Shown one piece after another: positions 19,642 to 64,000 of a stretch of DNA of 64,000 nt (position 1 is the stretch's first letter; each line of letters begins with the position of its first letter). The translations under genes and the position numbers were made by a program. This stretch comes from an uncultured Chloroflexia bacterium (GTDB taxonomy: Bacteria; Chloroflexota; Anaerolineae; Anaerolineales; UBA4823), in assembly GCA_963695415.1 (NCBI GenBank), contig CAVOGL010000024.1:124802-188801 (forward strand). Reading direction: 5' to 3'. Below the pieces are notes generated by a model that saw nothing but the letters and a program-made list of their open reading frames with translations, was not told the origin of the DNA and did not search any database.

Positions 19642-19716
19642 CCTTTAGGGGGGATTGAGGGGGGTGCCTTTAGTGGGGATTGAGGGGGGTGCCTTTAGGG
19701 GGGATTGAGGGGGGTC
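19642..19716 (+). repeat. 3 x 25-nt G-rich tandem repeat overlapping the stop codon of the PNPOx-like gene
   Basis: cctttaggggggattgaggggggtg x3 (one mismatch in unit 2); unit 3 contains the last codons and TAA of 19695-20192. Confidence 0.9.
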
Positions 19717-20192
19717 ACCATCGCCCTGCCTCGTGCCTTCTCCGGGTACCTCATCTCCATCAATGAAACTCCCACCCCGTACGTGATGAAATCTCCGATT
19801 GGCTCGATCGCGATCACCGCAGTGGAATCCAAAATATTACTGTCCAGTTCGAGTCCTCGGAACAGTGCCTTCAGAACATCCTCGCCGACCTCGTCAGGCT
19901 TGAGCAGGCTTGCCTTGCCCGAAAACGAGATCGTCGCCGCTGGAATTTTTATCCACGGCATCAAGGGTATCCGTTTGGCGATCGCCACGGTCAAAGAGAC
20001 ACTGGGGTTGCTGCGGATATGCCGTACTTTCCACGCGTCTTTCTCTGAAGAGACATAAAGCTTCTGCTCATTCACGATATACACAACGCCAACCGTGCGC
20101 GCCTCGCCCTTTGCTGTCACCATTCCCAGGACGGCGAAGATTTCTTTCTCCAGTTCCTTCCAGACAAGCTCGCTGGTGATTTGGTTTGCCAT
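19695..20192 (-). CDS. pyridoxamine 5'-phosphate oxidase-like FMN-binding family protein
   Basis: 165-aa ORF; split-barrel PNPOx-like pattern (FAVLGMVTAKGEARTVGVVYIV...RSNPSVSLTV). Confidence 0.7.
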   Translation of the reverse strand: MANQITSELVWKELEKEIFAVLGMVTAKGEARTVGVVYIVNEQKLYVSSEKDAWKVRHIRSNPSVSLTVAIAKRIPLMPWIKIPAATISFSGKASLLKPDEVGEDVLKALFRGLELDSNILDSTAVIAIEPIGDFITYGVGVSLMEMRYPEKARGRAMVTPLNPP

Positions 20193-20223
20193 TAAAAAGC
20201 TCCTTTAGTTTGTTTATTTGCCT

Positions 20224-20986
20224 GCACTGAACGAAAAGCGGATTGCGTTTCGCGCGCAGTTGTCCACGCAGGTCCCGCACAGGATACATTCCGAGTTTTC
20301 CATTTTTCCCAACTGCACCATGCCGTTCACGTCCAGGCTCATCGGGCAGTTCTTTGTGCACAGTCTTGCAGTCCTTGCAGGCGGATGCGTCTGCCTTCAG
20401 CCGCAGTGAGGGCCAGTCGAAGCGGTTGCGCACCCAGCGCCCGATCATCATGAACGGCGCCATCCAGCAGATGGTATGGCAGCCAGCCCTCCGTCCGGCG
20501 ATGACCGCCACAACCGACGAACAGGGCGATCACGAAATAGTAGATGATGTAGGCAAAAAGGATCGGGCGGTCTGGTGAGCCTGCCACCGAGATGCCGTTC
20601 TCGGTGTGGTAGAAGAGGTCGACGCTGGAATAACCACCCGCACGAACCGCCAGAAAGAACGATCAGGCTGACCCACGGGACCCAGATCAGCCACTTGATC
20701 CAGTCGATCCTGCGCCCATTCACCGCTTTGTTGTTGACCGGCTCGACGATCTCCTGCATCCCCCCGCCCGGGCACACCCACCCGCACCAGGCGCGCCCCA
20801 GGAACAGCGACGAGACGAACATCAGCCCGAACATGATCAGGCTGCCGTTGACGATCCCGTTCATGGCCCCGTCGATGATGACATACGGTGAAAGAAAGTT
20901 CATCGTGATCGGGAAGGACAGGAAAGCAGGATCACAATCCCCTTGCGGATACGTTGACGCAGTGGTAGTTGTTTGTTCATTGCCAT
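20224..20986 (-). pseudogene. membrane 4Fe-4S protein (YccM/NapH-like), about 4 frameshifts
   Basis: five frame segments join into MAMNKQLPLRQRIRKGIVILLS / FLSFPITMNF...GRAWCGWVCPGGGMQEIV...SLIVL / FFLAVRAGGYSS...YFVIALFV / ...GCHTICWMAPFMMIGRW...CKDCKT / CTKNCPMSLDV...CILCGTCVDNCARNAIRFSFSAGK*. Confidence 0.7.
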
Positions 20987-20987
20987 C

Positions 20988-21574
20988 TCAATCTCCTATT
21001 CTTGCGGTACTTCGCCGTTTCGGATGCGTGTCGATGACATTTTCAGCCCATTCCAGGTTGGCGCGCAGGTTACGCATGCCGTTGTCCAGCGTCAGCATCC
21101 AGAAGAAAGTGCTCGCGTGGTGATGGGATTTCATGCTTGTACGGCCTCGATGCTTACCGGGCACCTGTTCATACTGGGCCAGGATGGCGCGCATGATCGA
21201 TGGCATAATCCTTCGAATTTGGCCAGAAGCCTCATCGTCGCGCGATCATGCCCAGCGAAAGAAGACCTGGATGAGCGGTGCGCTGCGTGGCTCCATCCAT
21301 CGGCGGCGGACCCGCCAGCCACTTGCAGCAATTCAGCCCGTCCATCAGCGGTGATGTGATAGACCTTGCGGTCCGGGCGGTTTTCCTGGTCGACCTTTTC
21401 CACCTGCGCATAACCTTGTTCGGTCAGGCGGTTGAGGGTGCGGTAGATCTGGCTCTGGTCGGCGGGCCAGAAGTGCTGCACGGAAGTGTCAAAGATTTTC
21501 TTCAGATCATAGCCCGAGTAGGGGTGGTAGTTGAGAAATCCGAGGATTGCATGTTCAAGCGACATACAAGACAC
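20988..21574 (-). pseudogene. PadR-family transcriptional regulator, up to 4 frameshifts in the C-terminal half
   Basis: intact wHTH (LEHAILGFLNYHPYSGYDLKKIF...QSQIYRTLNRLTEQGY...KVYHITADGRAEL). C-terminal domain only readable by frame hopping (WLAGPPPMDG / PLIQVFF / AGHDRATMRLLAKFEG / IMRAILAQYEQ...FWMLTLDNGMRNLRANLEWAENVI). Confidence 0.7.
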
Positions 21575-21755
21575 TCCTTATATAAGACTATACATATATA
21601 ATATTAGTATAATAGTAAAATTGTCTTACGTCAAGACCGCAGCTTAGAAAAAATAGGAGATAACATTCGTCTGTATTTTTAGGTTTTATCAAGTTGGAAC
21701 GCCTTTTAGCGTTTTTATTCCCCCAATAAGAGGATAACAATTCATTGAATAAAGA

Positions 21756-27014: not shown

Positions 27015-28740
27015 TTGAACCAAACCATGAAATGCCCGAGCTGTGGTGCGACGGTCGAATTTGATCCGGGTGGGACTCCCGTTGTTCGTTGTCCCTATTG
27101 CCAGACCTCCATCATAATTCCAACCGAATTGCGCCAACCCGCATCCTTACCGGTCCAAATGTTTCAGCGCCCCGGTTGGTCAGACCAAATCCTGCAGCCA
27201 GCCCAGGTCGCCAGTATCCAGGAGTTAGCTCGACTTGCTCACCAGGGGGACAAGATTGAGGCGATTAAAATTTACCGGCAGGTCTTTGGCGCAAGCCTCC
27301 AGGAATCGATAGACGCCGTAGAAAGTATCCAACAGGGTCATAATATCTCTAACCCACAGACGTCAACGCCCGGTCCATTTCTGCAGGATAAGCAGGTCAA
27401 GGATGAGGTTTCTCGTTTACTGCAGGACGGGCGTAAGATCGAAGCGATTAAGTATTACCGCCAGGTTACCGGGCAGAGTTTGAAGGATTCTAAGGAAGCG
27501 GTTGATAATTTTCAATCAAACGGTTCTCTCAATTTGCCTGCTTCTCCGGGTACATACCCTGCCGAGAATATATATCTGGCGGTCAGCCTGGTATCTGTGG
27601 TAGAGCTGGTTCAGGCAGGTGAAGAACAGGCAGCAATTTCCGCCTTCCAGGGTGCATTTGGTGTCGGTTTTGCGGAAGCGCATGCAAGCGGTTCATAAAA
27701 TTTCCCTGGGCGTTACCCAGGATGCGCTGGCAATCGATCCAACCCGGCAAACATTCAATACCATCAAAATTCCTGAGGTTTCTTCCAAAGCCATGAAAAC
27801 AACCGCCGGAGTGGTTGGCGGTATCTCATGTTTATGGGTGTTTGGAGTGATTGCAGTGATTCTCATAACAGTAGTACCGGTATTGTTTGCTCTCAGCAGT
27901 TCGGGCGGACCCCTGGAATTCATCTGGAATCAAATCAACCCGATGGCATACGCCCGGGTTAGCTTGAGATTCGGTGAAGAGGGTAGAGCTCCTGGAATGT
28001 TCGATGATCCGCGCCAGATGACGATTGATCCGCAAGAAAACTTACTCATCGCCAATTACTCGGATGGTCGCGTTCAGAAATTTGATTCATCGGGTGACTA
28101 CATGATGCTCTGGAATATCGGAACGGAGAAATATGTCAGCGGGATAGCATCAGACCAGGATGGTGCTGTTTATCTGGTCTATCGCGGCGGGCTCTGGAAG
28201 TACGCTTCAGAAACAGGTGAGCTTCTGGGCAGGATGGCTGAGAATATGGATGCCTGGTTTGAGGTTGTTGCCACTACAGCCGATAATGGTGTTGTTGCCG
28301 CTGTGAATACGGAACAGATTATGCGCTTTGATTCGAAGGGAAATCTGGTTTTTTCCTTAGCAGATATCCCCGGCACGCAGAGCGGAAAGCCTGATAGAAT
28401 CCAGGACATCGCGGTCGATGGAGTTGGTGGAATGTATGTGCTTTCTGATCGCGGCACGATCAACATTTACACACCCCAGGGTCGTCTGGTCACTCGCTTC
28501 GGTAGCGCCGGTGATGAACAGGGTCAGTTGCGTGCTCCTTCAGCGATTGCGGTGGATGGACTGGGTAATATTTACATCAGTGATATCAAAGGGATTCAAG
28601 TTTTTACGAATGATGGGCGCTACCTGGATCGCATTGAGACCGAAGGTTTCGCCTTCGGCATGGAATTTGATGCTCAAGGCGCTCTTTGGGTGGTCACCAA
28701 TCTGCCCAAAGTTTTCAAATACGAGATCGTTGAACGGTGA
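27015..28740 (+). pseudogene. zinc-ribbon / 3 x L7-L12-C-like repeat / TM / NHL beta-propeller protein, one apparent +1 insertion at 27681
   Basis: CPSCGATVEF..CPYCQT; repeats IEAIKIYRQVFGASLQESIDAVESIQ and IEAIKYYRQVTGQSLKDSKEAVDNFQ. The third repeat AAISAFQGAFGVGFAEA|MQAVHKIS is completed only across the frame change. Then TM helix and NHL-like blades (GNIYISD, GGMYVLSD). Confidence 0.65.
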
Positions 28741-28834
28741 GGAGAAACTAAACCGCACACAGTCCGGAACGCTTATTTGTTACAATTCGATCTGTAACAG
28801 TCCAACGCCATCCTGTGCCTTAGGAGAGATCCAG

Positions 28835-30314
28835 ATGGACTACGCCCCAGAAAATGAAGGTCACATGCTCCAGGTCAGGAACTATATCGAGCACCATCCT
28901 GAGCCCGGTTACCAGCATGCCTCCGATGAAGCCAAAGAAGCTTTTCGCGACATGAAGTACGGTGTGCGCATCCATTGGGGGCTTTACACGCTGTGGAACC
29001 TGCGCAACGAATCCTGGAAATTTCTGCGCATGTCTCGCCAGCGGCGCCAGGCTTACCAGCAGCTTTACCAGGAGTTCAACCCCCAGAATTTTGATGCCGA
29101 CGCCTGGATGGAATTTTTTAAGAGGGTTGGTTTCAGGTGCTTTGCCATCACCACCAAGCACCACGAAGGCTTCTCACTGTTTGACACCCGGACGCGCGTG
29201 CGCAGCAGGATGAATTGGGCAGCTCCTGGCGGTCCGCAGATCGAAGACTGCGACCTGGCTTACAGCGTGATGGACACACCCTTCAAGCGCGACATTATTG
29301 CCGAGTTGTGTGCATCAGCCCAACAGCATGGCATCAAAACCGACCTGTATTTTTCCCACCCCGATTGGTACGACGCTGACTTTCGCCCCTACAGCTTTCA
29401 CCCTCTCCAAACCCAGAGAGTTCTACGATCTGCCGCAAGAATATGGCACGGTCGAGTACGTGAATTTACTCAAACCACCTCGCCACATATTGTCTCCTGA
29501 GCCATCTCCTGAAGAAGTCCAGCGCATGATGGCGCGACACCGTGCTCAGCTGGTCGAATTACTCACCAACTACGGCAAAATCGACATGCTCTGCCTGGAT
29601 ATGTGGCTTGGCAAGCCCGTCTGGTCTGAGCTGCGTCAGACGATCAAGCTGCTGCGCCAGATCCAGCCCGACGTTATGCTGCGCATTCGTGGCATCGGCA
29701 ATTACGGCGATTACTACACTCCCGAAGGGATTGTTCCCGCGGACAAAGCCGAGACCAATATGCCCTGGATGGTGATTTACCCCCTGGGACGCACCTTTTC
29801 CTACGAAACGCAGGTCCGGTTTCACAAAGGACCGGATTGGATCATCCGCAATCTGATCCAGTGCACGGCTACGGGAGGCAATTTCATGGTTGGGATCGGT
29901 CCTGATGCGGATGGCTGGTTTCACCCGCGCGCAATTGAGGTGCTTGAACAGGTGGGAGAATGGCTTCAACTGAACGGCGAGGCAATCTATGCCACCCGCC
30001 CTCACACTCCATGGCATGACGGTCAGGGTATCTTCTTCTCGAAGGCAAAAGACAACCGCTCCATTTATGCCTTCTTCTGCGAGGATGCCTGGAAAGAGGC
30101 GCGTAAATCAGGTCGTTTGATCCTTGGATCCATTCCAGTCCGGCAGGGATTGCAGATTACGCCGCTTGGTGTCGATTCAACGCCCACATCTTCAGGGCTG
30201 GAATGGTCCCAGGAGGGTCAATCCCTGGTCGTACACCTTCCTGCTCGAGTGAGTGAGCAGATGCACCGGACCATCCGGTTTGCCAGGGTTTTTAAATTCT
30301 CTTATTCATCATAG
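28835..30314 (+). pseudogene. alpha-L-fucosidase (GH29), frameshift near 29400
   Basis: YGVRIHWGLYT, FAITTKHHEGFSLFDT, then frame change (..DADFRPY | KPREFYDLPQEYG), DMLCLDMW, TGGNFMVGIGPDADG; ATG 28835 after aggagag. Confidence 0.75.
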
Positions 30315-54764: not shown

Positions 54765-55639
54765 ATGCAAAGCATCGCCCTCCTATTTCTTCTGGCAGTC
54801 ATTTTTCTTTCCGCCTGCGCATCTCCTCGAACCATCGAGACAACGCCTGCCGCCACGCTGCCTCCTACGCTCCAGAGCCAACCAGAACACCCACACATAC
54901 TCCCACACCATCCAACCCTGCCACTTCTCTCGCCATGAATTGTGACGATTGGGCGTTACTCGACCTTGGAGAATACCAGGCTCAGAACAACACCTGGGGG
55001 AAGGGAACGCTCAGCGGCTGGTCCCAGTGTATTGGCATTGGGAATAATGACGATGGGACGCTTATCGCCCGTTGGACCTGGGATTGGCTGAACTCGGGTG
55101 GGAATGTCAAGGCTTATCCCGAGATCGTTTTCGGTCAGAAACCAGGTAGTTCGACCACCACAGCTTCCTTACCTGCCCAAATCAACAGCATCCGTTCCGC
55201 CACCGTCACTTACGATGTCGCCTCCACATACACCGGCAGTGGGAACCTGGCTTTCGATATCTGGCTGACCGATACGGACAACCCGTCCACCTGGGGAGTG
55301 CCGCCGATCACCCACGAGATTATGATCTGGCTGGATTACTATGGCAGCATGAGTCCGGGCGGCGCCTGGCAGGGGCGCGAGATGATCGATGGTGCCACCT
55401 ACAGCGTCTACGTGGGCGAGAAGTATGGCGACGGTTGGCGCTATATCGCCTTCGTCAGAGCCCCTAGGCAGCAGGGCGCAGGCACCCTCGAACTTGCCGC
55501 TTTTCTCACTTATTTACGCGAAAAGGGTCTCGTGACCGGTGAAGAATACCTGGCATCGATTGAGTTCGGCAATGAGGTCGCCGGCGGAACCGGCGAAACC
55601 CTCCTCAATATATATTCAATCTCAGTGCAAGCAGAGTAA
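54765..55639 (+). pseudogene. lipoprotein GH12-family glycoside hydrolase, frameshift in the Thr/Pro linker near 54875
   Basis: signal plus lipobox MQSIALLFLLAVIFLSAC. The linker continues in the GH12 frame as EPTRTPTHTPTPSNPATSLA. GH12 motifs YQAQNNTWG, VKAYPEIVFG, FDIWL, HEIMIWL. Confidence 0.75.
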
Positions 55640-55678
55640 CGTACCCGGTTTCCCGTCTCCCTCACGAGGAAAGCGATT

Positions 55679-55828
55679 TTAATCGGATCCCAGGTCGTTT
55701 AGCAGGTCCTCAAACCAATTCCTTGCAAAAGCGTGCGTCTGCAAACCATAATCGAGCGTCTTGAGCTGGTATTTAAGGATATCTTTGTAAGAAGCTGGGA
55801 TTTCAATCCGCCTGATTTCCTCGTTCAT
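55679..55828 (-). CDS. 49-aa hypothetical small protein translationally coupled to hutH
   Basis: not in ORF track (<60 aa). ATG overlaps the hutH stop as ATGA. MNEEIRRIEIPASYKDILKYQLKTLDYGLQTHAFARNWFEDLLNDLGSD is non-repetitive and helix-like. Confidence 0.35.
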   Translation of the reverse strand: MNEEIRRIEIPASYKDILKYQLKTLDYGLQTHAFARNWFEDLLNDLGSD

Positions 55829-57402
55829 CTGGCTATAGTGACTTTCTCACTAATGCTTTCGATCATCTGCCCACTGACAATCAGTTCTGCCAGAATGTTG
55901 ATATCTGAGGATGTCTCCCGGTCGTGCTCGAGGAAGGACACGCGACTGCGCACGGCATCATACACCTTCGCCGTCCCCTCTCCCAGGCGCTCCGCGGCAT
56001 CCGCACCGCGCAGGTCCACCGCCTGCGCCGCCGTCATCAGTTCGATCGCCACCACATGACGCACGTTCTCCAGGATCTCCAGGCAGTGCCGCGCCGCGTT
56101 CGCTCCCATACTCACGTGGTCTTCCTGGTTGGCGCAGGAAGGGATCGAGTCCACGCTGTCCGGATGTGCCAGAGTTTTGTTATCCGACACCAGTGCCGCC
56201 GCTGTGTACTGCACCATCATCAATCCGCCGTCCAACCCACTCGTCCTCACCAGCATCGCCGGCAGCCCGTGGTTCAGTTCCGGTGTCAGCAGCCTGAACA
56301 CCCGCCTCTCGGCGATGTTCGCCACTTCCGCCATGGCGATCCCCAGGAAATCCAGCCACATCGCCGGTCCCTGACCGTGGAAATTGCCTCCCGAAATTGA
56401 TTGCATACCTTCACCCTCAGGATCGGACGGAAATATTAACGGGTTATCCGTGGCCGCGTTGATTGCAGCACTAAATCGCTGGCGCAGGAAAGCGATCGTG
56501 TCCATCACCGGTCCCAGGACCTGAGGGATGCAGCGCAGGCTGTAGGCATCCTGCACCTTCTCTGGCGCTGAATCGATCAATCGGCTGCCAGCGGTCATGA
56601 AGCGTATATTCTCTGCCACATGCTGTTGTCCGGGTTGGTTGCTCGCCAGGTGCAGTGCCGGCTCGAACGCCGCCGAAAGCCCCAGCAGCGCCTCCAGGCT
56701 GAGAGCTGCTGCCGCCTGTCCATGGCGCAGCAGGTTCTCGGCATCGTGCACCGCCAGCGCCCCACAAGCGCTCATGAAGTCCATCCCGTTCGACAGCGCC
56801 AGCCCCTCCTTCGCTTCCAGCACGATCCGCTCGATCCCCGCCCTGCGCATCGCCTCCGCCCCGTCAAACAATTCTCCCATGTAGATTGCTTTGCCGCTGT
56901 ACCCGCCGTCACCTTCTTCCAGGTCGCGCGTTAACACCGTGGCGATGTGCGCCAGAGGCGCCAGGTCGCCGCTCGCCCCCAGCGATCCCTTCTCCGGCAC
57001 CAGCGGCGTAACCCCCGCGTTGAGCATATCCACCAGCGTCTGCGCTACCACCGGTCGCACCCCCGAGTGTCCCTTCGCCAGCATATTGGCGCGGATCACC
57101 ATCATCGCCCGTACCACGTCCTCCGGCAGTGCCTTCCCCACACCGCTGACGCACAGCACAATCAGGTTGCGCGACAGCGACAGAGCCTGGTCTGCACTGA
57201 TCACTCGGTTCGCCAAAGAGCCAAACCCCGTATTCACCCCATAGATCACTTTGCCAGGTTGTGCAATGGATCGCAGCACCCACTCGTGGCTGCGCTGCAT
57301 TTTCTGCCGGATCTCTTTATTAAATGGAGCGACTGGTTTATGGTCACGCGCCACCGCCACGATTTGTTCGATGGTCAACTCATTACCATTAAGCTCTATC
57401 AT
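55825..57402 (-). CDS. hutH: histidine ammonia-lyase
   Basis: MIO-forming GASGDLAPLAH; full-length family pattern; ATG 57402 with GGAGG 7 nt upstream preferred over TTG 57408. Confidence 0.9.
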   Translation of the reverse strand: MIELNGNELTIEQIVAVARDHKPVAPFNKEIRQKMQRSHEWVLRSIAQPGKVIYGVNTGFGSLANRVISADQALSLSRNLIVLCVSGVGKALPEDVVRAMMVIRANMLAKGHSGVRPVVAQTLVDMLNAGVTPLVPEKGSLGASGDLAPLAHIATVLTRDLEEGDGGYSGKAIYMGELFDGAEAMRRAGIERIVLEAKEGLALSNGMDFMSACGALAVHDAENLLRHGQAAAALSLEALLGLSAAFEPALHLASNQPGQQHVAENIRFMTAGSRLIDSAPEKVQDAYSLRCIPQVLGPVMDTIAFLRQRFSAAINAATDNPLIFPSDPEGEGMQSISGGNFHGQGPAMWLDFLGIAMAEVANIAERRVFRLLTPELNHGLPAMLVRTSGLDGGLMMVQYTAAALVSDNKTLAHPDSVDSIPSCANQEDHVSMGANAARHCLEILENVRHVVAIELMTAAQAVDLRGADAAERLGEGTAKVYDAVRSRVSFLEHDRETSSDINILAELIVSGQMIESISEKVTIAR

Positions 57403-57476
57403 CACCAAACCTCCTCGATTTCGTAGTCCATTGGGATAATAAGATCCGGAACTGATCCCTCGAATTTTTCTGCCAT
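57402..57476 (-). CDS. 24-codon upstream ORF coupled to hutH (TGATG overlap)
   Basis: MAEKFEGSVPDLIIPMDYEIEEVW; own RBS (gggagagg). Same-length paralog of the first 21 codons of the cyclodeaminase gene (MAEKFGIFDPEPGIPMDYEIE). Confidence 0.4.
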   Translation of the reverse strand: MAEKFEGSVPDLIIPMDYEIEEVW

Positions 57477-57530
57477 TTTATCAGCAACCTCTCCCGGCAT
57501 CCGAGCACATCAGCCAGCATATAGCCAGCT

Positions 57531-57555
57531 TGTAGGTCAGGTATCCCTACCTGAC
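57531..57555. repeat. 25-nt hairpin repeat, copy 1
   Basis: tgtaggtcaggtatccctacctgac identical to 63831-63855; stem GTCAGGTA/TACCTGAC, loop tccc. Confidence 0.85.
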
Positions 57556-57567
57556 ACCTGCCTGACC

Positions 57568-57620
57568 TATTCGCCCCATTCGTCCATTCGCATCATTCGT
57601 GTTAAAAACCCCCGTCCCCC
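57568..57620 (+). repeat. CATTCG array / GTTAAAAACCCCC box copy
   Basis: tattcgccccattcgtccattcgcatcattcgtgttaaaaacccccgtccccc in the hutI-hutH spacer. Confidence 0.55.
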
Positions 57621-57647
57621 TTCGATTTTCATGCAGCCCTTCGTGTT

Positions 57648-58946
57648 TCAGCTTTTCCCCGTCACTCCGTCCCCGGTCTCCCGTCCTCCCACATAAACCA
57701 ACCGCCCCCTTTTCATCACCATCACCACCGCGTTGTTGCCCAGCCGGTAGATGCTGTCATCGAAGGATGGCAGGTCCCAGACCTGGATGTCGGCAAGTTT
57801 CCCCTTCTCCAACGTGCCGCGGTCATCCAGCCCCACCGCCTGTGCCGCATAGTGGGTTGCCGACAACAGCGCCTCTTCAGGGCTGAATCTGTACAGCCGG
57901 CATGCCAGCTGCATCACCAGCTGCATCGATTCCATCCAGCATCCCGGGCAGAAATCGGTCGCCAGCGCCACGCGCATTCCCCGATCCATCATCGCCCGTG
58001 CATCGAACGGCTTGGGATGCCGCACCGCGAAATCCAGCCCGGGCATCACCACACCCACAACCCCTGCTTCTGCAAGGCTCTCGATCTCCGCCTCGCTGGT
58101 ATAGTTCAGGTGGTCTGCAGAAATCGCGGGCAGTTCAGCCGCCAGCCGGCTTCCGCCAATGTTGGCATACGCGTCCACGTGCATTTTTGGTCGCAGCCCG
58201 TGCTGCATCCCTTTCTCCAGGATGCGCCGCGATTCCTCCACACTGTAGTAGCCTTCATCGCAGTACACATCGCAGAAATCAGCCAGACCTCTCTCTGCCA
58301 CCTTCGGGATCATCTCATCCAGCAGCATTCCCAGGTAGCGTTCCCTGGTCACCTCAGCAGGGAAATCATGGGCTCCCAGGAAGGTACTCACCACGTCCAC
58401 CGGCTGCCAGGAAGCCAGTTCCTGGTTGATCTCCAGCATTTCAATCTCTTTCGCCAGGGTCAACCCGTACCCGCTTTTGCTTTCGACCGTTGTGGTGCCG
58501 TAGGACAGCATGCGCTCCAACCGCCCCAGCGCTTCATCGCACAGCGCATCTTTGCTGCTGGCGCGTGTCATCCTTACCGTCGCCTGGATGCCGCTTGGGA
58601 TTCCCATCGCGGCCACCTCAGCCGCATTGCGCGTCATCCTCGCCGCGTACTCCTGTGCCCGCGTGCCGCCGAAGACCAGGTGCGTGTGGCAGTCCACGAA
58701 CCCCGGCGCCAGGATCTTCCCGCTCACGTTTACCACGCGTGCCTGTGAGAGGTTGAACTGCGATTCCAGTTCGCTCAGTTCTGCCACCGCGGCTATGGTC
58801 TCGCCCTGTACCGCCACTGCCGCGCCCTTTCGTTGTCCCAGTGGGTTGCCAGCCTCCGGGCAGCACGTCAGCGCCATCATCGCCCCCTTCAATACCAGGT
58901 CTACTGCCGGCTTTTCCACTCTTTCTATCCGTGCGCTCTCACTCAT
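57648..58946 (-). CDS. hutI: imidazolonepropionase
   Basis: amidohydrolase metal motif FVDCHTHLVFGG, family-typical HVDAYAN, ATDFCPG; ATG 58946 chosen, ORF open to 58979. Confidence 0.85.
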   Translation of the reverse strand: MSESARIERVEKPAVDLVLKGAMMALTCCPEAGNPLGQRKGAAVAVQGETIAAVAELSELESQFNLSQARVVNVSGKILAPGFVDCHTHLVFGGTRAQEYAARMTRNAAEVAAMGIPSGIQATVRMTRASSKDALCDEALGRLERMLSYGTTTVESKSGYGLTLAKEIEMLEINQELASWQPVDVVSTFLGAHDFPAEVTRERYLGMLLDEMIPKVAERGLADFCDVYCDEGYYSVEESRRILEKGMQHGLRPKMHVDAYANIGGSRLAAELPAISADHLNYTSEAEIESLAEAGVVGVVMPGLDFAVRHPKPFDARAMMDRGMRVALATDFCPGCWMESMQLVMQLACRLYRFSPEEALLSATHYAAQAVGLDDRGTLEKGKLADIQVWDLPSFDDSIYRLGNNAVVMVMKRGRLVYVGGRETGDGVTGKS

Positions 58947-60689
58947 CCTTTGTGTGGGGTCCCAGCCGGTCACCCGCACCGGTACTGCCCCCAGCTGTCT
59001 CCGGTCCGAAGGTCGCCGTGGGTGACCACCACAGCGGAATCTTGATGGTCTCTCCGGTCAGGGGTCCCTTCCCCTCGCACACCTGCCGCGCGGTTTCGTA
59101 ACCCGCCTGCGCGTGCCGCACCACCCCAATGCCCGAATCCGTGGTCATGCACACATCCAGCCGCAGGTCGGCCTCCTCGCTCCCGTCGGCGATCATCGTC
59201 ACGCCGGTGTGTACCGCCTCGCCCATCGAGTAGTTGGCCTGGATTGCCACCAGGTCTGCCATCCCCGCCGTGTTCAGCAGCGCGTTCAAATAAGGCCAAT
59301 CGGAGATCAGGTCTCCGCCATCCTTCATCTTCTCCGATTCGAAGGTCGGGTTGACGATCGAGCCCGAGTCCAGGTTGTCGCGCGAGAAGCCCACCGGTCC
59401 CGCCAGTTCCCCGCTGCGGATCATCTCGTTTACCCGCAGTGCCAGTTCTCGCCGCTCCCCAAAGCCCAGGTAGCACACCCGCGCTGGCAGCGCCTCGATC
59501 GGCAGGGTCTCGCGCGCCAGCTCGATCCACTTCACCGTTGTCTTATCGTGCGGGAACATCTCCAGCACCAGCGCATCGATCTTCGCCAGGTCACTGGCCT
59601 CGCCCGACAGGCACGTCCAGCGGAACGGTCCCCTTCCCACCAGGAACAACGGGCGGATATACGCCGCCACGAACCCCGGGATGGTCATGGCCTCCGCCTC
59701 CGGCATGCCCGCGTCGCGGCACTCCTTGCGGATGCTGGTGCCGTATTCGAAAACCTGAACGCCCTTGTGGTAGAAAGCATTCATCGCCGCTAACTGACGC
59801 TTCATTGAATCGCGCGCCACCTGGAAGTAGCCGTCCCGGTCCGCGGCTCGCAGTTCAGCCGCCGACTTCCGCGCTGTAACCCGCCGGGATGTAAGACAGC
59901 GGGTCGTGGCACGGGCACATCTCGGAGATGATGTCCGGCAGCCAGCCCATCTCCAGCGCCTTCGGGAACAATTCTGCTGCGTTCCCCCACACCCCGATCC
60001 CTACAGCCCTCTTCTCAGCTTTAGCCTTTTCGGCGATCTGAACGGCTTCTTCCAACGAGTCCGCCTCGATATCGAGGAAGCCTCTCTCCAGAGAACGCTG
60101 GATGATTGCCGGGTTGGCATCCACTACCACGCATACCCCGCCGTGCATCGTCGTCGCCCGCGGCTGGTTACGCCCCATCCCGCCTAATCCTGCGGTCAGG
60201 TAGATCCTGCCCGCCAGGCTGCCGCCAAAATGCTGCTCGGCGATTGCGCCCAGGGTCTCGAAGGTGCCCTGGATCACGCCCTGGGTGCCGATGTACTCCC
60301 ACGGTCCCGCCGTGTACTGTGCGAACATGGTCAGGTTCTTGTCCTGCAAGATCGTAGAAGATTTCCCACGTTGCCTTCATGATATTGGTGTTTGCCATCA
60401 CCACCCTCGGCGCCAGGCGGTGTGTTTTGAACATAGCCACCGGCATCCCGGACTGGACCACCAGTGTTTCGTTGTTCTCTAACTCCATCAGTGACTGCAC
60501 GATGGCGTGGTAGCTTTCCCAGTTGCGGGCGCACTTCCCGATCCCGCCGTAGATCACCAGGCGTTCCGGCGCTTCGGCGTTCTCCATGTTGTTTTCCAGC
60601 ATGCGCAGCAGCGATTCCTGTTTCCAGCCTTTGCAGCGCAGTGTTTTTCCGCGCTGTGCCTTCACAGAATATAAAATTTCGGGTTTCAT
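58939..60689 (-). pseudogene. urocanate hydratase, 2 frameshifts (near 60349 and 59868)
   Basis: three ORF pieces 60168-60689, 59855-60349, 58939-59820 join as ..WEIFYDL|QDKNLTMFAQYTAGPWEYIGTQGVIQGTFET..PAGYSAE|SAAELRAADRDGYFQVARDSMKRQ..FEYGTSIRKEC.. Confidence 0.85.
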
Positions 60690-60714
60690 TGGGTTTCTCC
60701 TGGGTATGTAATTA

Positions 60715-61608
60715 TTAATCGAGTAAAGCCGTCTCGATGATTTGCTCCATCTTGAAGTCGTGCACCTGTAAGTAATATTTCAGCACCTCTTCCACCGCTC
60801 CCAGTGGCACCGGTCCGACCAGTTCTGCCCCAGCCACCATCACGCCGTAGCGTTTTGCCTCCGCCCGTACCGCTTCCAGCACGCGCGGGATCGGCGTTTT
60901 GGCGTAATTTACCAGGTTCATCGACACCTGCACCTGCCCTTTATCTTCCAGCGCCAGCCCCATCGCCCGCACGTAGCGGAACCCGCCGTTGATGTGCCGC
61001 ACAGCCCTGGCAATATTTTCAGCGACAGACACGTCCGTCGTCAGCAGGTTCACGTTGAATGCCACCAGTGGAAAGCGCACTCCGGTTACCATCGCCCCCG
61101 CTTTGGCGTTGAATGACGCTGGTCCCTCGTCCGGCGCCCATGCCGGGTCTTGCAGCTTCTTTTCCAGGGCTTCGTACTGCCCCTTGCGGATATCGGGCAG
61201 CCGTTCTCGTTCCGGTCGCAGTGCCGCTTCCTCGTAATAATAAACCGGTACCCCCAGGCTGCCGACATAGCTGCCGAACTGGCGCGCCACTTCCACCGCT
61301 TCAGCCGTCTCCATACCCCGTACCGGGATGAACGGCGCCACGTCGACCGCCCCCATGCGCGGGTGCGAGCCGTGGTGCTGGCGCATGTCGATCTTCTCGA
61401 AAGCCTTCTTCGCCATTGCCTTTGTTGCTTCCAGCACCGTTTCCGGATCGCCAAGGTAGGTGAATACTGAGCGGTTGTGGTCCGCATCCGAGCTTATGTC
61501 CAGGATCTTGATCCCTTCGTGTCGCTGCACCTCCGCCAGCACCTCTTCCACGAGAGCCAGGTCGATGCCTTCGCTGATGTTCGGTTCGCACAGGAGTACT
61601 TTTTTCAT
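60715..61608 (-). CDS. ftcD: glutamate formimidoyltransferase domain (in frame with upstream cyclodeaminase, no stop between)
   Basis: MKKVLLCEPNISEG, DADHNRSVFT, HPRMGAVDVAPF motifs of the FTCD N-type domain. Confidence 0.8.
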   Translation of the reverse strand: MKKVLLCEPNISEGIDLALVEEVLAEVQRHEGIKILDISSDADHNRSVFTYLGDPETVLEATKAMAKKAFEKIDMRQHHGSHPRMGAVDVAPFIPVRGMETAEAVEVARQFGSYVGSLGVPVYYYEEAALRPERERLPDIRKGQYEALEKKLQDPAWAPDEGPASFNAKAGAMVTGVRFPLVAFNVNLLTTDVSVAENIARAVRHINGGFRYVRAMGLALEDKGQVQVSMNLVNYAKTPIPRVLEAVRAEAKRYGVMVAGAELVGPVPLGAVEEVLKYYLQVHDFKMEQIIETALLD

Positions 61609-62283
61609 AGTTTGCCTTTTCGGGAAAGTTGTTTTGTCAGGGCATGGTTGCTCCTGTGCAGCTTGCAATGCCTCCACCTGCCTACTGATCTCCTCAGCCT
61701 GCTGTGCCAGGGCAGATACAATCGCAGCATCCTTGATCGAGCCCAGGTTGATTTTCACATTTTCCAGGCAGCCCAGAGCTCCGGCGTTTGCCAGAAGCCG
61801 CGCACAGTTCATATCCGACTCGGCCGCCGAATTTGTACGTCCCTCTAGTTCCTGGACCCGAGCGTTTGGAGACAGAGCCTTGCGTTCTCCAGCGGCACCT
61901 GTCAGCCGCTCTCACCCATGCCGCCTGGATCGCCAGCCTGCGCCGCTGCCGTTCCTCTTCGTTTTCCTTAGGCAGCCTGTAGCTCATCGAAATCGCCTGG
62001 AACGCTTCGCTGTCCAGCCGGCTGCCGGTCTGCAGTTCCTGGCTGAGAACCTCTGCACGTTCTCCCGCCTCATGCAAGCGCTCCCGTTCTTCAGTGGTCT
62101 TATTTTTCACCGGCAGCAGGCATACCATCGCTACCAGCGCTGCAGCCATCGCCGAGCGATCGCGGATGCCGACCCACCACCGGCAGTCGTGTCGTCCGGC
62201 CGTAAAACGTTCAGGTAAGTTTCAATTTCGTAGTCCATGGGGATACCGGGCTCCGGGTCAAAGATACCAAATTTTTCTGCCAT
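61609..62283 (-). pseudogene. formiminotetrahydrofolate cyclodeaminase domain, 2 frameshifts (near 62163 and 61915)
   Basis: ..YLNVLRPDDTTAGGGSASAIA | MAAALVAMVCLL..RRRLAIQAAWVRA | GAAGERKALSPNARVQELEGRTNSAAESDMNCARLLANAGALGCLENVKINLGSIKD.. then runs in frame into ftcD. Confidence 0.7.
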
Positions 62284-62521
62284 TTTATCAGTATCCTTGC
62301 ACAGCAAACAGATCCGGTGTCCACATTCAGCCTGAAAGGGCAACACATTGGTGCGCTACCTGGTCGATCTTAACCAAAAATATCAGCTTATAATTCCCGC
62401 CGCTCAGGGGTGGCACTGGCTTCTCATATTTCTGAGAACAGCACAACCTGGACCTGACAACACTGGATTCAGCAAATACGTCAGCATACCGCTGGAATGC
62501 TATTGCTGATTTCTATGATTA

Positions 62522-63600
62522 TTACGGTGTTTCAGAAACCCCACTGACCACTGACCTCACAGCGCTCAGCGTCGAATAACCGCCTAACTCTTGCGCAGCA
62601 GCGAGACTACCGTCACCACCAGGAAGAGTACAATCGCCGCCCTCATTTAGCAGTCCGCCCCATTTGCGCAGTTCCAACTGAAGCCATAGGTCCCCCACCA
62701 CGCGCAGTACGAGCGAAGCATGCAGCAGACCCACGGGCACGTACGCCGCGGACGAGAACTGCAGTTCTGCCCAGGATCGCGGGAAAATGATCGGTGCATG
62801 ACCGAAGATCATGCTCATCACATAACCTACAAAGAAAGCGTGCAGTGCCGCATCATACACCGGACCGGTGTAAAGCCCTCCGTAGTACAGCAAGATTTCC
62901 GCCCGAAATTCCCAACCAGATGAATCCACTCGTCAGGCACAGGGCGATATAACGCGTCAGCACAGCTGGGTGGCGCAGGTTGCGCACCGCCAGGTCATAG
63001 CGTAGTGACCAAACAGCCATCGCCGTCAAAGTCACCCCGCACAACCTCGCTGCCCAGTTTAAGTTCAGCAGAGCCAGCCCGGCAGCCGCGATTACCAACA
63101 CCCCCAATGCCAGGAAAAGCCGCACCAGCCTGACCGGAGTCCGCAGCACCCGGCTCAGTTCCAGCCGTTCTCCGCCGATTGTCAGCACAAGGAAAGCGAT
63201 CCACCAGAACACCACCTGGTAAATGGGTACCCCAGCCAGCCACAGCGCGTTACCCACCAGCCATGCCAGCCCACCAGATGCCATCATCCATGTGTGTGCC
63301 TGCGGCTCGCGCCGCACCATCACTGCCAGGATCAATACCATCCCCAGGCTGCCAAGGGTCATCAGCAGCGCACCCAGGGTAGGCAGCACCAGAAGGCACA
63401 CCCATCCCGCAGCTGCCACCACCGGTACCGCATACATCCATCTCTCCCGCATTGCCGCCGCCCGTTCCAGCGGGATCAAGACACCCAGGAACCCGGACAC
63501 CATCAGCGTCGCCATGGGAGAGAGCCAGGTTCGAAATCGCCGGCAGCTCCCAGCCCAGCCGCAGCAGCCCGCCCCACATCGCAAAAACCAGCGCCAGCAT
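62522..63600 (-). pseudogene. polytopic membrane protein, unknown family, 2 frameshifts (near 63510 and 62905)
   Basis: pieces MLALVFAMWGGLLRLGWELP..LALSHG | LMVSGFLGVLIPLERAAA...SGFIWLGI | AEILLYYGGLYTGPVYDAALHAFFVGYVMSMIFGHAPIIFP; start uncertain. Confidence 0.5.
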
Positions 63601-63830
63601 TGCCAGACCAACAAACGGCAGTGCCGGGACCTTTACCTTTTTATTGATCTTCCTCTCCTCCGCATGTCCCAGCCTTGAACTTTCCGGTCACAGGTATTGG
63701 CGCCAGCATCATGAATTCTATAAACCTCACCATTTTCTAAAAGGGCTAACATCCACCAATCAGCCAGGTCTCTCACCTCAGTGCCCAGCCTCAATCATAC
63801 CCCACTATTGTCAATCCCCCCTTCATTCAA

Positions 63831-63855
63831 TGTAGGTCAGGTATCCCTACCTGAC
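63831..63855. repeat. 25-nt hairpin repeat, copy 2
   Basis: identical to 57531-57555. Confidence 0.85.
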
Positions 63856-63877
63856 TTCCGGTTATTATCTGGATCCC

Positions 63878-64000
63878 CTAAGGCATCAGCCCAGAATTCC
63901 CCAGGCGCTCATGAATTTCATTGAAGGCATTGGCTTCAGCTTGGTTGATCACCTTGCTCTGGACGAGTTCACCCAGGATGGCTGCTTCCCGTTCCGTTGG
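63878..64000 (-). CDS. 3' end of an unidentified gene running off the window
   Basis: open minus-strand frame ..TEREAAILGELVQSKVINQAEANAFNEIHERLGNSGLMP* with stop at 63878-63880. Confidence 0.3.
   Translation of the reverse strand, partial: PTEREAAILGELVQSKVINQAEANAFNEIHERLGNSGLMP

Follow-up and report, generated by a model that had tools for sequence, protein, structure and literature searches.

Directly upstream of hutH, the gene for histidine ammonia-lyase, a short upstream open reading frame (uORF) of 24 codons was found in a 64,000-nt stretch of DNA (hereafter, the window) from an uncultured Chloroflexota (Anaerolineae-like) lineage. The 5' part of this uORF matches the start of a neighbouring cyclodeaminase gene, its 3' end aligns with the hutH leader of relatives, and its stop codon overlaps the hutH start codon. 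The join of copy and leader falls at the site where, in the nearest relatives, the hutI stop overlaps the hutH start, which fits a proposal of the first-pass annotation of this DNA, namely that a duplicated initiation cassette drives hutH through a coupled uORF. Hence, we lean, if only slightly, towards the interpretation that the duplicated cassette forms a mini-cistron that has taken the place of the hutI 3' end in coupling to hutH.

The paired repeat and the reading frame before hutH

The uORF, which would encode MAEKFEGSVPDLIIPMDYEIEEVW, occupies positions 57402..57476 of the minus strand (ATG 57476-57474, TGA 57404-57402), on which hutH and the other hut features of the window also lie. 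Its stop codon and the hutH ATG (57402-57400) overlap in the sequence TGATG, with 1 nt common to the two co-directional reading frames, and the uORF frame is closed by three consecutive stops (TGA, then in-frame TGA and TAG). The hutH Shine-Dalgarno (SD) sequence, GAGGAGG (57410..57416, minus strand), is located 7 nt 5' of the hutH ATG, and also occurs in the stand-alone hutH leaders of two relatives (G022 and L144). The free-standing 24-codon frame, its TGATG overlap with hutH after GGAGG and its lack of His codons had been reported by the first-pass annotation, and were confirmed. hutH itself (55825..57402, minus strand) is intact and encodes an enzyme of 525 amino acids (PF00221; TIGR01225 equivalog, 570.9 bits with a cut-off of 539), the homologs of which all begin MIEL..., i.e., at this ATG.

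The window belongs to a metagenome-assembled genome (MAG) of 31 contigs with 92.7% completeness and 5.1% contamination. As a frame check, contigs from independent public short-read runs (X1 and X2) were aligned to the window. They cover the uORF/hutH junction at 57285-57515 (X1) and 57358-57466 (X2) with 0 gaps in either; every listed substitution at the junction falls in hutH, those at 57385 and 57391 being synonymous when translated, and the TGATG overlap is identical in both. Since two independent contigs span the junction without gaps, the frame offset between uORF and hutH is real and is no assembly error.

Alignment of the segment before hutH (57484..57415) with the 5' end of the gene for the FTCD_C cyclodeaminase (CD; 62291..62222) revealed that 17 of the 70 aligned nucleotides differ, 15 of them within a single block of 24 nt that was chosen post hoc (hypergeometric P=1.8e-7). 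The mismatches thus separate two boxes, as the first reading of this homologous pair, with near-identical ends and a diverged middle, had described. Box 1, CTGATAAAATGGCAGAAAAAT (57464..57484 in the hutH-proximal copy, 62271..62291 in the CD copy, both on the minus strand), is identical in 21/21 positions and holds a start codon, ATG1 (62283-62281 in the CD copy). Box 2, TATCCCAATGGACTACGAAATCGA in the hutH-proximal copy (57415..57438, minus strand; 62222..62245 in the CD copy), has the consensus TATCCC[A/C]ATGGACTACGAAAT[C/T]GA with 22/24 identical positions, and contains a second start codon, ATG2, followed by the codons DYEIE. The spacer between the boxes (57439..57463, minus strand) holds 15 of the 17 mismatches, but keeps identical length and an open frame in both copies despite 15/24 changes. 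When it is aligned with two compensating 2-nt indels, identity rises to 13/18 (by eye, with two sequences only); the possibility that one spacer is an inversion of the other was rejected (9/25 matches, by eye).

The pair is specific to these two sites. On the minus strand of the window CTGATAAAATGGCAGAAAAAT occurs exactly twice (57484..57464 and 62291..62271), with 0 occurrences expected from 100 shuffles; the 12-mer CTGATAAAATGG is found just at these two sites of the 4.83-Mb genome, and a whole-genome DNA search recovered the pair at E=1e-8 with no third copy. Upstream of box 1 the homology between the copies is not significant (local score 15, shuffle mean 15.8). Purine-rich SD-like tracts are positioned 10-11 nt 5' of ATG1 in both copies, in agreement with the earlier assignment of a ribosome-binding site to each; in the uORF the tract is GGGAGAGG, 11 nt upstream of ATG1, and is predicted to be paired. 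ATG2 of the hutH-proximal copy is without an SD.

The differences within the boxes point to preservation. All four (TTC/TTT, CCA/CCC, ATC/ATT and GAG/GAA) are synonymous third-position changes in the uORF frame, for which P=4.5e-4 on about 5.7 synonymous sites, and one of them, CCC>CCA, is assignable to the hutH copy when a CD paralog on another contig (C30) of the same MAG is taken as outgroup. Neutral sites look near saturation, as in the spacer, with the ends preserved. In near-strain contigs the hutH copy shows 0 changes over 57403-57515 (113 nt), compared with 5 in the adjacent 118 nt of hutH (a small sample), and for the CD copy, in a likewise small sample, the listed changes number 12 for the 75 nt 5' of box 1 and 0 for boxes and spacer. 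Constraint on the uORF within this one lineage is therefore suggested by these comparisons.

Origin of the copied segment and remodelling of the hut cluster

The CD gene (61609..62283, minus strand) changes frame near 62155, 61905 and 61850; its counterpart in relatives stands alone and encodes about 195-200 amino acids. Its nearest stand-alone homologs (about 195-205 amino acids) begin MEYELETF.., MEYDLQTF.. or MENEIQTF.., continuing with ..L.P.D.TTGGGSASA, and the window CD aligns to them from its second Met, MDYEIETYLNVLRPDDTTAGGGSASA (canonical start ATG2 62238-62236, MDYEIETYL...). The C30 paralog, which is 69% identical, begins cccATGGAATACGAAACAGAG, has an in-frame stop 21 codons upstream of its start and carries no N-terminal extension. 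Because the homologs and the C30 paralog begin at the ATG2 position, box 2 is the start region that CD had ancestrally, and the segment in front of hutH was accordingly copied from CD and not the reverse. Box 1 and the next 15 codons (MAEKFGIFDPEPGIP; MAEKF...GIP) form a lineage-specific in-frame extension of CD. MAEKF..PMDYEIE was rejected as a family-wide CD N-terminus since the closest stand-alone CD proteins begin at the ATG2 position, and it is also absent from the relatives' housekeeping gene, a fusion of glutamate formiminotransferase (FT) with CD. Hence, the description of the uORF as a paralog of the CD 5' end is correct but incomplete: just box 2 is ancestral CD coding sequence, and the 3' end of the uORF is hutH leader. 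Likewise, the segment was taken as the start of the CD frame, whereas homologs begin at the second Met and the gene changes frame about three times; the CD start should be annotated as ambiguous between ATG1 and ATG2. At its own locus (L124, 7593-8725), the C30 paralog adjoins a divergent ArsR-family helix-turn-helix (HTH) regulator and Hdr/FlpD-like redox genes, with no hut genes adjacent; its reading frame is broken within the G-run that follows directly on GGG(S), and the contig ends 58 nt past the gene.

The 3' part of the uORF has a different source. Stand-alone hutH leaders in G022 and L144 read ..cacc/tactAAA[T/A]CGAt[c/t]GAGGAGGatgactATGAT, and the window reads ..ctacgAAATCGA-GGAGGtttggtgATGAT at the matching site. 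In a four-way alignment the uORF region tracks the CD 5' end as far as ACGAAATYGA and from there the G022 and L144 hutH leaders (AAATCGAtcGAGGAGG...ATGAT). At the 3' end of box 2 (ACGAAATCGA) the sequence is also that of the native-type hutH leader motif (AAATCGA..GAGGAGG), and this is the presumed recombination junction. Microhomology of about 8-10 nt is present there (TACGAAATYGA in CD, CAC/TACnAAAnCGA in hutH leaders), and we read the alignment as the probable signature of an illegitimate join at microhomology.

The ancestral arrangement at this site is preserved in the closest relatives in the protein databases (L141, L142 and L143), whose hutH is 78-81% identical to that of the window. 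Their order is divergent hutC (GntR/UTRA), then CD (195-199 amino acids)-FT-hutU-hutI-hutH, and the hutI stop and hutH start share 4 nt (..gag gtg acg aaATGAtt..), with the hutH SD (GAGGTG) within the last hutI codons; in a further genome, G013, the hutI/hutH junction is TGAaATG. In the window, compared with the ATGA overlap of the nearest relatives, about 245 nt lie between the two genes. hutI (imidazolonepropionase; 57648..58979, minus strand) ends in a C-terminal tail, VGGRETGDGVTGKS, unlike that of the relatives, and the rest of the lineage-specific spacer (57485..57647, minus strand) contains two repeat families. The first is CGAATG-rich, of about 40 nt, at about 57568-57608, with about 9 genomic copies, and is found also in a genome of the same order (G026); the second is a 25-nt hairpin, GTCAGGTA-GGGA-TACCTGAC (57531-57555), with 7 genomic copies, one of them an identical element at 63831-63855, upstream of the hut cluster. 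Hairpins of the hutI-hutH spacer are stable (z=-2.1). Both repeat families behave like REP/MITE-type intergenic repeats.

The uORF was not encountered outside this lineage. No uORF motif stands upstream of hutH at those 80 loci of species genomes that are closest in hutH, in the six within-family orthologs of this hutH (G022, G014, G012, G013, G033 and G034) or at four metagenomic hut loci of about 80% identity. The CD extension and two-box patterns, including codon-degenerate two-box patterns, had no match in representative genomes of about 185,000 species, and a scan of JGI metagenome contigs with the codon-degenerate two-box pattern gave 0 matches. A word (8-mer) search for the CD extension in 5.8 billion proteins, limited to residues 1-45, returned nothing similar; phmmer, run exhaustively over 1.84 billion representatives, returned the self-match and two weak matches in long proteins, taken as unrelated. 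Rfam 15 covariance models run over 55500-64000 on both strands gave 0 matches at E<=1. A conserved leader upstream of hutH in relatives was rejected, as it is absent from all loci compared. The uORF is thus, on the evidence of these searches, specific to one lineage and not a conserved leader or regulator, and such a short ORF should not be labelled a conserved leader peptide. Here our results depart from the first-pass annotation, which had considered a conserved leader peptide or RNA element: the uORF is missing from every related genome and collection searched, no Rfam family matches, and the peptide MAEKF..PMDYEIE, suggested as a query, was looked for upstream of hut genes in relatives and not found.

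The remainder of the cluster has been reshaped as well. Identity to L141-L143 amounts to 83-85% for FT (297 amino acids from ATG 61608; 60715..61608, minus strand), 87-88% for hutU, 70-73% for hutI and 78-81% for hutH, and falls to 50-53% for CD. The divergent hutC and the palindromic operators present in L141 and L143 (e.g., CATATATACTCGTACATACGAGTATATATG in L143) are absent at the window cluster, with no palindrome upstream of CD, and GntR matches elsewhere in the genome are weak (43-45% over the HTH, or 27% over 145 amino acids 67 kb away). Because of the low CD identity and the missing HutC gene and palindromic operators, we conclude that the 5' end of the operon was remodelled too. In place of hutC, two unannotatable membrane-like ORFs (62522-62929 and 62853-63614) are found upstream of CD. 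In G034 (L139, C19 3470-6507) hutH stands directly 5' of CD-FT, in the order hutH-CD-FT...hutI, which indicates that the position of hutH among the hut genes has shifted repeatedly in this bacterial order. The same MAG has a second, dispersed hut set of hutH, hutI, hutU and an FT-CD fusion (C16:93174-94667, C8:17576-18805, C8:232493-234125 and C6:35257-36769), 36-45% identical to the window cluster, and a genome of the same genus (G001) lacks the compact cluster; the window cluster is probably an additional, acquired set.

Whether the hut cluster is functional depends on the frame breaks in CD, FT and hutU being assembly errors. hutU (urocanase; 58939..60689, minus strand) is split into three ORFs by two single extra bases, at 60348 and 59867, which the short-read contigs lack, and the CD gene passes through three frames. 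Short-read contigs from other runs lack the extra bases of the window at 59867, 60348 and 60710, and themselves have extra bases, relative to the window, at 61631 and 61656; the extra bases of the window are located in short TT or AA runs. Since the contigs differ at those bases, the split hutU and the apparent read-through fusion of CD to FT are probably indel artefacts of a long-read MAG; read in a neighbouring frame, CD would have its stop at a TGA that overlaps the FT ATG (cTATGAaa). More generally, the frame breaks of the cluster look like indel errors or strain-specific lesions, and the comparison suggests assembly errors for those in CD, FT and hutU, more tentatively for those of CD near 62155, 61905 and 61850. 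Many single-base frame breaks are seen in 58939-62283 (hutU, FT and CD), and also in 27604-30314 and 19695-21577.

Weighing the coupling interpretation and its alternatives

According to the interpretation that we favour, a partial duplication would have joined about 80 nt of the CD 5' end to a native-type hutH leader, giving rise to the lineage-specific chimeric uORF. The copied piece would comprise the SD region and ATG1, the 15 codons of the lineage-specific extension, and the canonical ATG2 with the first six codons of CD (to CD codon 21), and the leader would supply the SD GAGGAGG. The mini-cistron, whose TGA overlaps the hutH ATG, may thereby take over the role of the 3' end of hutI: ribosomes would bind at the initiation region copied from CD, read through the 24 codons and, on their way, open a stem between the uORF interior and the hutH start; termination would occur on the start codon of hutH, followed by reinitiation or hand-over to the strong SD. 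The candidate stem is a predicted hairpin (hairpin 2; 57396..57442, minus strand), in which the hutH start region (GGUGAUGAUA), with a predicted pairing probability of 0.89, forms a stem with codons 12-16 of the uORF. As both hut translation units would begin with the same initiation region, they could respond alike to anything acting there. Translation of the uORF, its coupling to hutH and the roles of the hairpins are what we infer from the nucleotide sequence.

Several points weigh against this interpretation. The strong SD that belongs to hutH itself stands at optimal spacing, and coupling is perhaps unneeded. Hairpin 2 (free energy -12.0 kcal/mol) is not significantly stabler than shuffles (p about 0.1), and the folds of 121 nt reach z-scores of just -0.2 to -0.5. 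CD homologs begin at ATG2, which makes translation from ATG1 putative even for CD, and box 1 also has the form of an extended -10 promoter, in which case the transcript would lack ATG1. Coupling alone would not require box 2 to be conserved in front of hutH; in a comparable integron leader, ORF-11, the amino-acid sequence hardly matters (PMC8876359). The microhomology at the junction may partly be due to chance, and the hutH tree is a polytomy, in which a permanent place after hutI and a re-insertion of hutH with its own leader are not separable.

The main alternative, which we consider unlikely, holds that what was duplicated is a promoter cassette. Box 1 would then contain TGaTAAAAT as an extended -10 promoter, together with its discriminator and start site; transcription would start a few nt 3' of it, ATG1 would be off the RNA and CD would be made from ATG2; hutH, cut off by the repeat hairpins, would have gained a copy of the same promoter with a short 5' untranslated region. 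TGATAAAAT is indeed present in both copies, CTGATAAAATGG is unique to the two sites, and conservation ends 8 nt 5' of ATG1 without -35 homology, as extended -10 promoters predict. The start of CD homologs and of the C30 paralog at the ATG2 position is also in keeping with this alternative, the loss of the relatives' HutC regulator and operator makes a new promoter arrangement plausible, and the stable spacer hairpins could block read-through. However, TGnTAAAAT occurs 207 times in the genome, which makes the motif alone weak evidence, and no sigma-70 consensus promoter was found in 57300-57750 and 62150-62600, though the scan requires a -35 element. Moreover, the SD-like tracts precede ATG1 at equal distance in both copies, the exact length and open frame of the spacer are retained, ATG2 of the hutH copy has no SD, and the conservation of box 2 in that copy is left unexplained.

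A rather improbable alternative is a shared translational operator or sensory leader peptide, private to the lineage, with both copies under selection and co-regulating the two hut translation units. The element would be an SD-sequestering hairpin with an invariant AUG loop, plus box 2 (MDYEIE), duplicated from the first enzyme gene to hutH after loss of the HutC repressor and operator, replacing HutC control, and read by an RNA-binding factor or via the nascent peptide MAEKF..IPMDYEIE. The structure in question is predicted hairpin 1 (57446..57497, minus strand), in which the uORF SD pairs with the spacer and a 17-nt loop, UAAAAUGGCAGAAAAAU, holds AUG1. The CD copy is predicted to form its counterpart, with the same loop and the SD-like tract paired with the diverged spacer, and both are stabler than 3'-arm shuffles (p=0.0065 and 0.0135 in the two copies). 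Clustered mismatches and synonymous-only box differences would fit old copies with preserved ends, and so would the absence of changes from the uORF region and from the CD boxes and spacer in near-strain contigs; a strain change at 62292, beside box 1, retains its pair as G-U. HutC and its operator, which the element would replace, are absent. Against this, there are two copies in one lineage with nothing similar in the collections searched or in Rfam, the orthologous CD and hutH leaders have no comparable hairpins, and no candidate trans-factor was identified. Covariation of the two boxes, proposed earlier as a check, was likewise not borne out: clean compensatory covariation in hairpin 1 was rejected, as the 5' arm from hutH finds an equally good partner in the 3' arm from CD (-19.6 kcal/mol). 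In addition, the box 2 differences could all stem from the CD copy and be explained by coding constraint.

The locus was also compared with known kinds of leader control. Intrinsic terminator-like sites were not found in 57300-57750 and 62150-62600, and the uORF does not resemble an amino-acid attenuation leader of the his/trp type, with 0 His codons and no terminator before hutH. A peptide motif shared across species upstream of the regulated gene, the mark of ribosome-arrest sensor peptides, is missing. HutP-type antitermination, as in Bacillus hut, involves a hutP gene and repeated UAG triplets in the leader RNA; here one UAG is seen in the leader, with no triplets in phase.

We regard it as slightly less probable still that the repeat is a neutral fossil, a functionless leftover of rearrangement (e.g., of a partial CD duplicate later deleted), with hutH relying on its own strong SD. 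The confinement of the repeat to one lineage agrees with this, as does the remodelling of the cluster, in which repeats were inserted, CD diverged far more than its neighbours (50-53% compared with 70-88% identity) and HutC was lost. Neutral decay, however, is expected to be uniform, whereas here the ends are near-identical and the middle is saturated; the box differences are synonymous only, the stop/start overlap is kept, and the uORF is unchanged in two strain-level contigs whose hutH has diverged. Finally, an assembly artefact, in which the uORF would be the hutH N-terminus severed by an indel error like those behind other frame breaks of this MAG, is essentially excluded and was rejected: single-base indels are numerous in this assembly and the hutH frame is open upstream as far as 57477, but two independent contigs pass 57402 without gaps, all hutH homologs begin MIEL..., the uORF frame ends in TGA TGA TAG, and the upstream hutH frame has TGA TAA and, as its sole start codons, TTG and GTG directly 5' of the ATG.

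Comparison with known systems

Termination-reinitiation coupling of gene pairs overlapping as ATGA or TGATG is well documented (Huber et al. 2019, PMC6728339). The window shares with such pairs the co-directional arrangement, the TGATG overlap and a downstream SD inside the upstream ORF, and the uORF occupies the same position as the 3' end of hutI in the relatives, whose hutI/hutH junction is a textbook ATGA case. It differs in that its upstream partner is a 24-codon chimera from the start of another gene, for which coupling is our interpretation. The gene set and order of the HutC-repressed operons of L141 and L143 (CD-FT-hutU-hutI-hutH) are also shared, with 70-88% identity except in CD, but the window has no divergent hutC and no palindromic operators, and its hutI-hutH spacer carries repeats and the uORF.

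Leader peptides of amino-acid catabolism offer a further comparison. TnaC, a 24-amino-acid leader upstream of tryptophanase, carries an arrest motif that is conserved between species, and its control operates by Rho-dependent termination within a long spacer. Like TnaC, the uORF is a 24-codon leader ORF directly 5' of the gene for an amino-acid-degrading enzyme; unlike TnaC, it is not conserved in other genomes and overlaps the downstream start.

A closer functional analogy is provided by the leader ORFs of the integron attI1 site. ORF-11, ORF-17 and ORF-18 are chimeric, made by recombination, and raise downstream translation by coupling, boosting the downstream gene even when it has an SD of its own (PMC8876359). 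In both cases a short ORF with an SD or SD-like tract and an ATG of its own is situated just 5' of a gene, at a junction that in the window is presumed to stem from recombination, and receives its stop from the joined DNA. The analogy is functional only, as nothing in the annotation of the hut cluster suggests an integron; moreover, the 5' part of the window uORF copies a neighbouring metabolic gene, and its peptide ends look conserved between the copies.

If our interpretation holds, the locus, at which ancestral and derived states are both seen, would illustrate how an operon can be mended after an insertion has broken a stop/start overlap: a copy of the initiation region of another gene, fused to the leader of the orphaned gene, yields a mini-cistron at the old coupling site. 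It would also suggest that uORFs are readily born from the 5' fragments of genes. We do not propose a new principle: a coupling leader ORF is of a known kind, and its occurrence in one uncultured lineage is of modest general importance. Possibly, it is best viewed as a natural counterpart of the integron ORF-11 and ORF-18 leaders and of synthetic "translational coupling cassettes".

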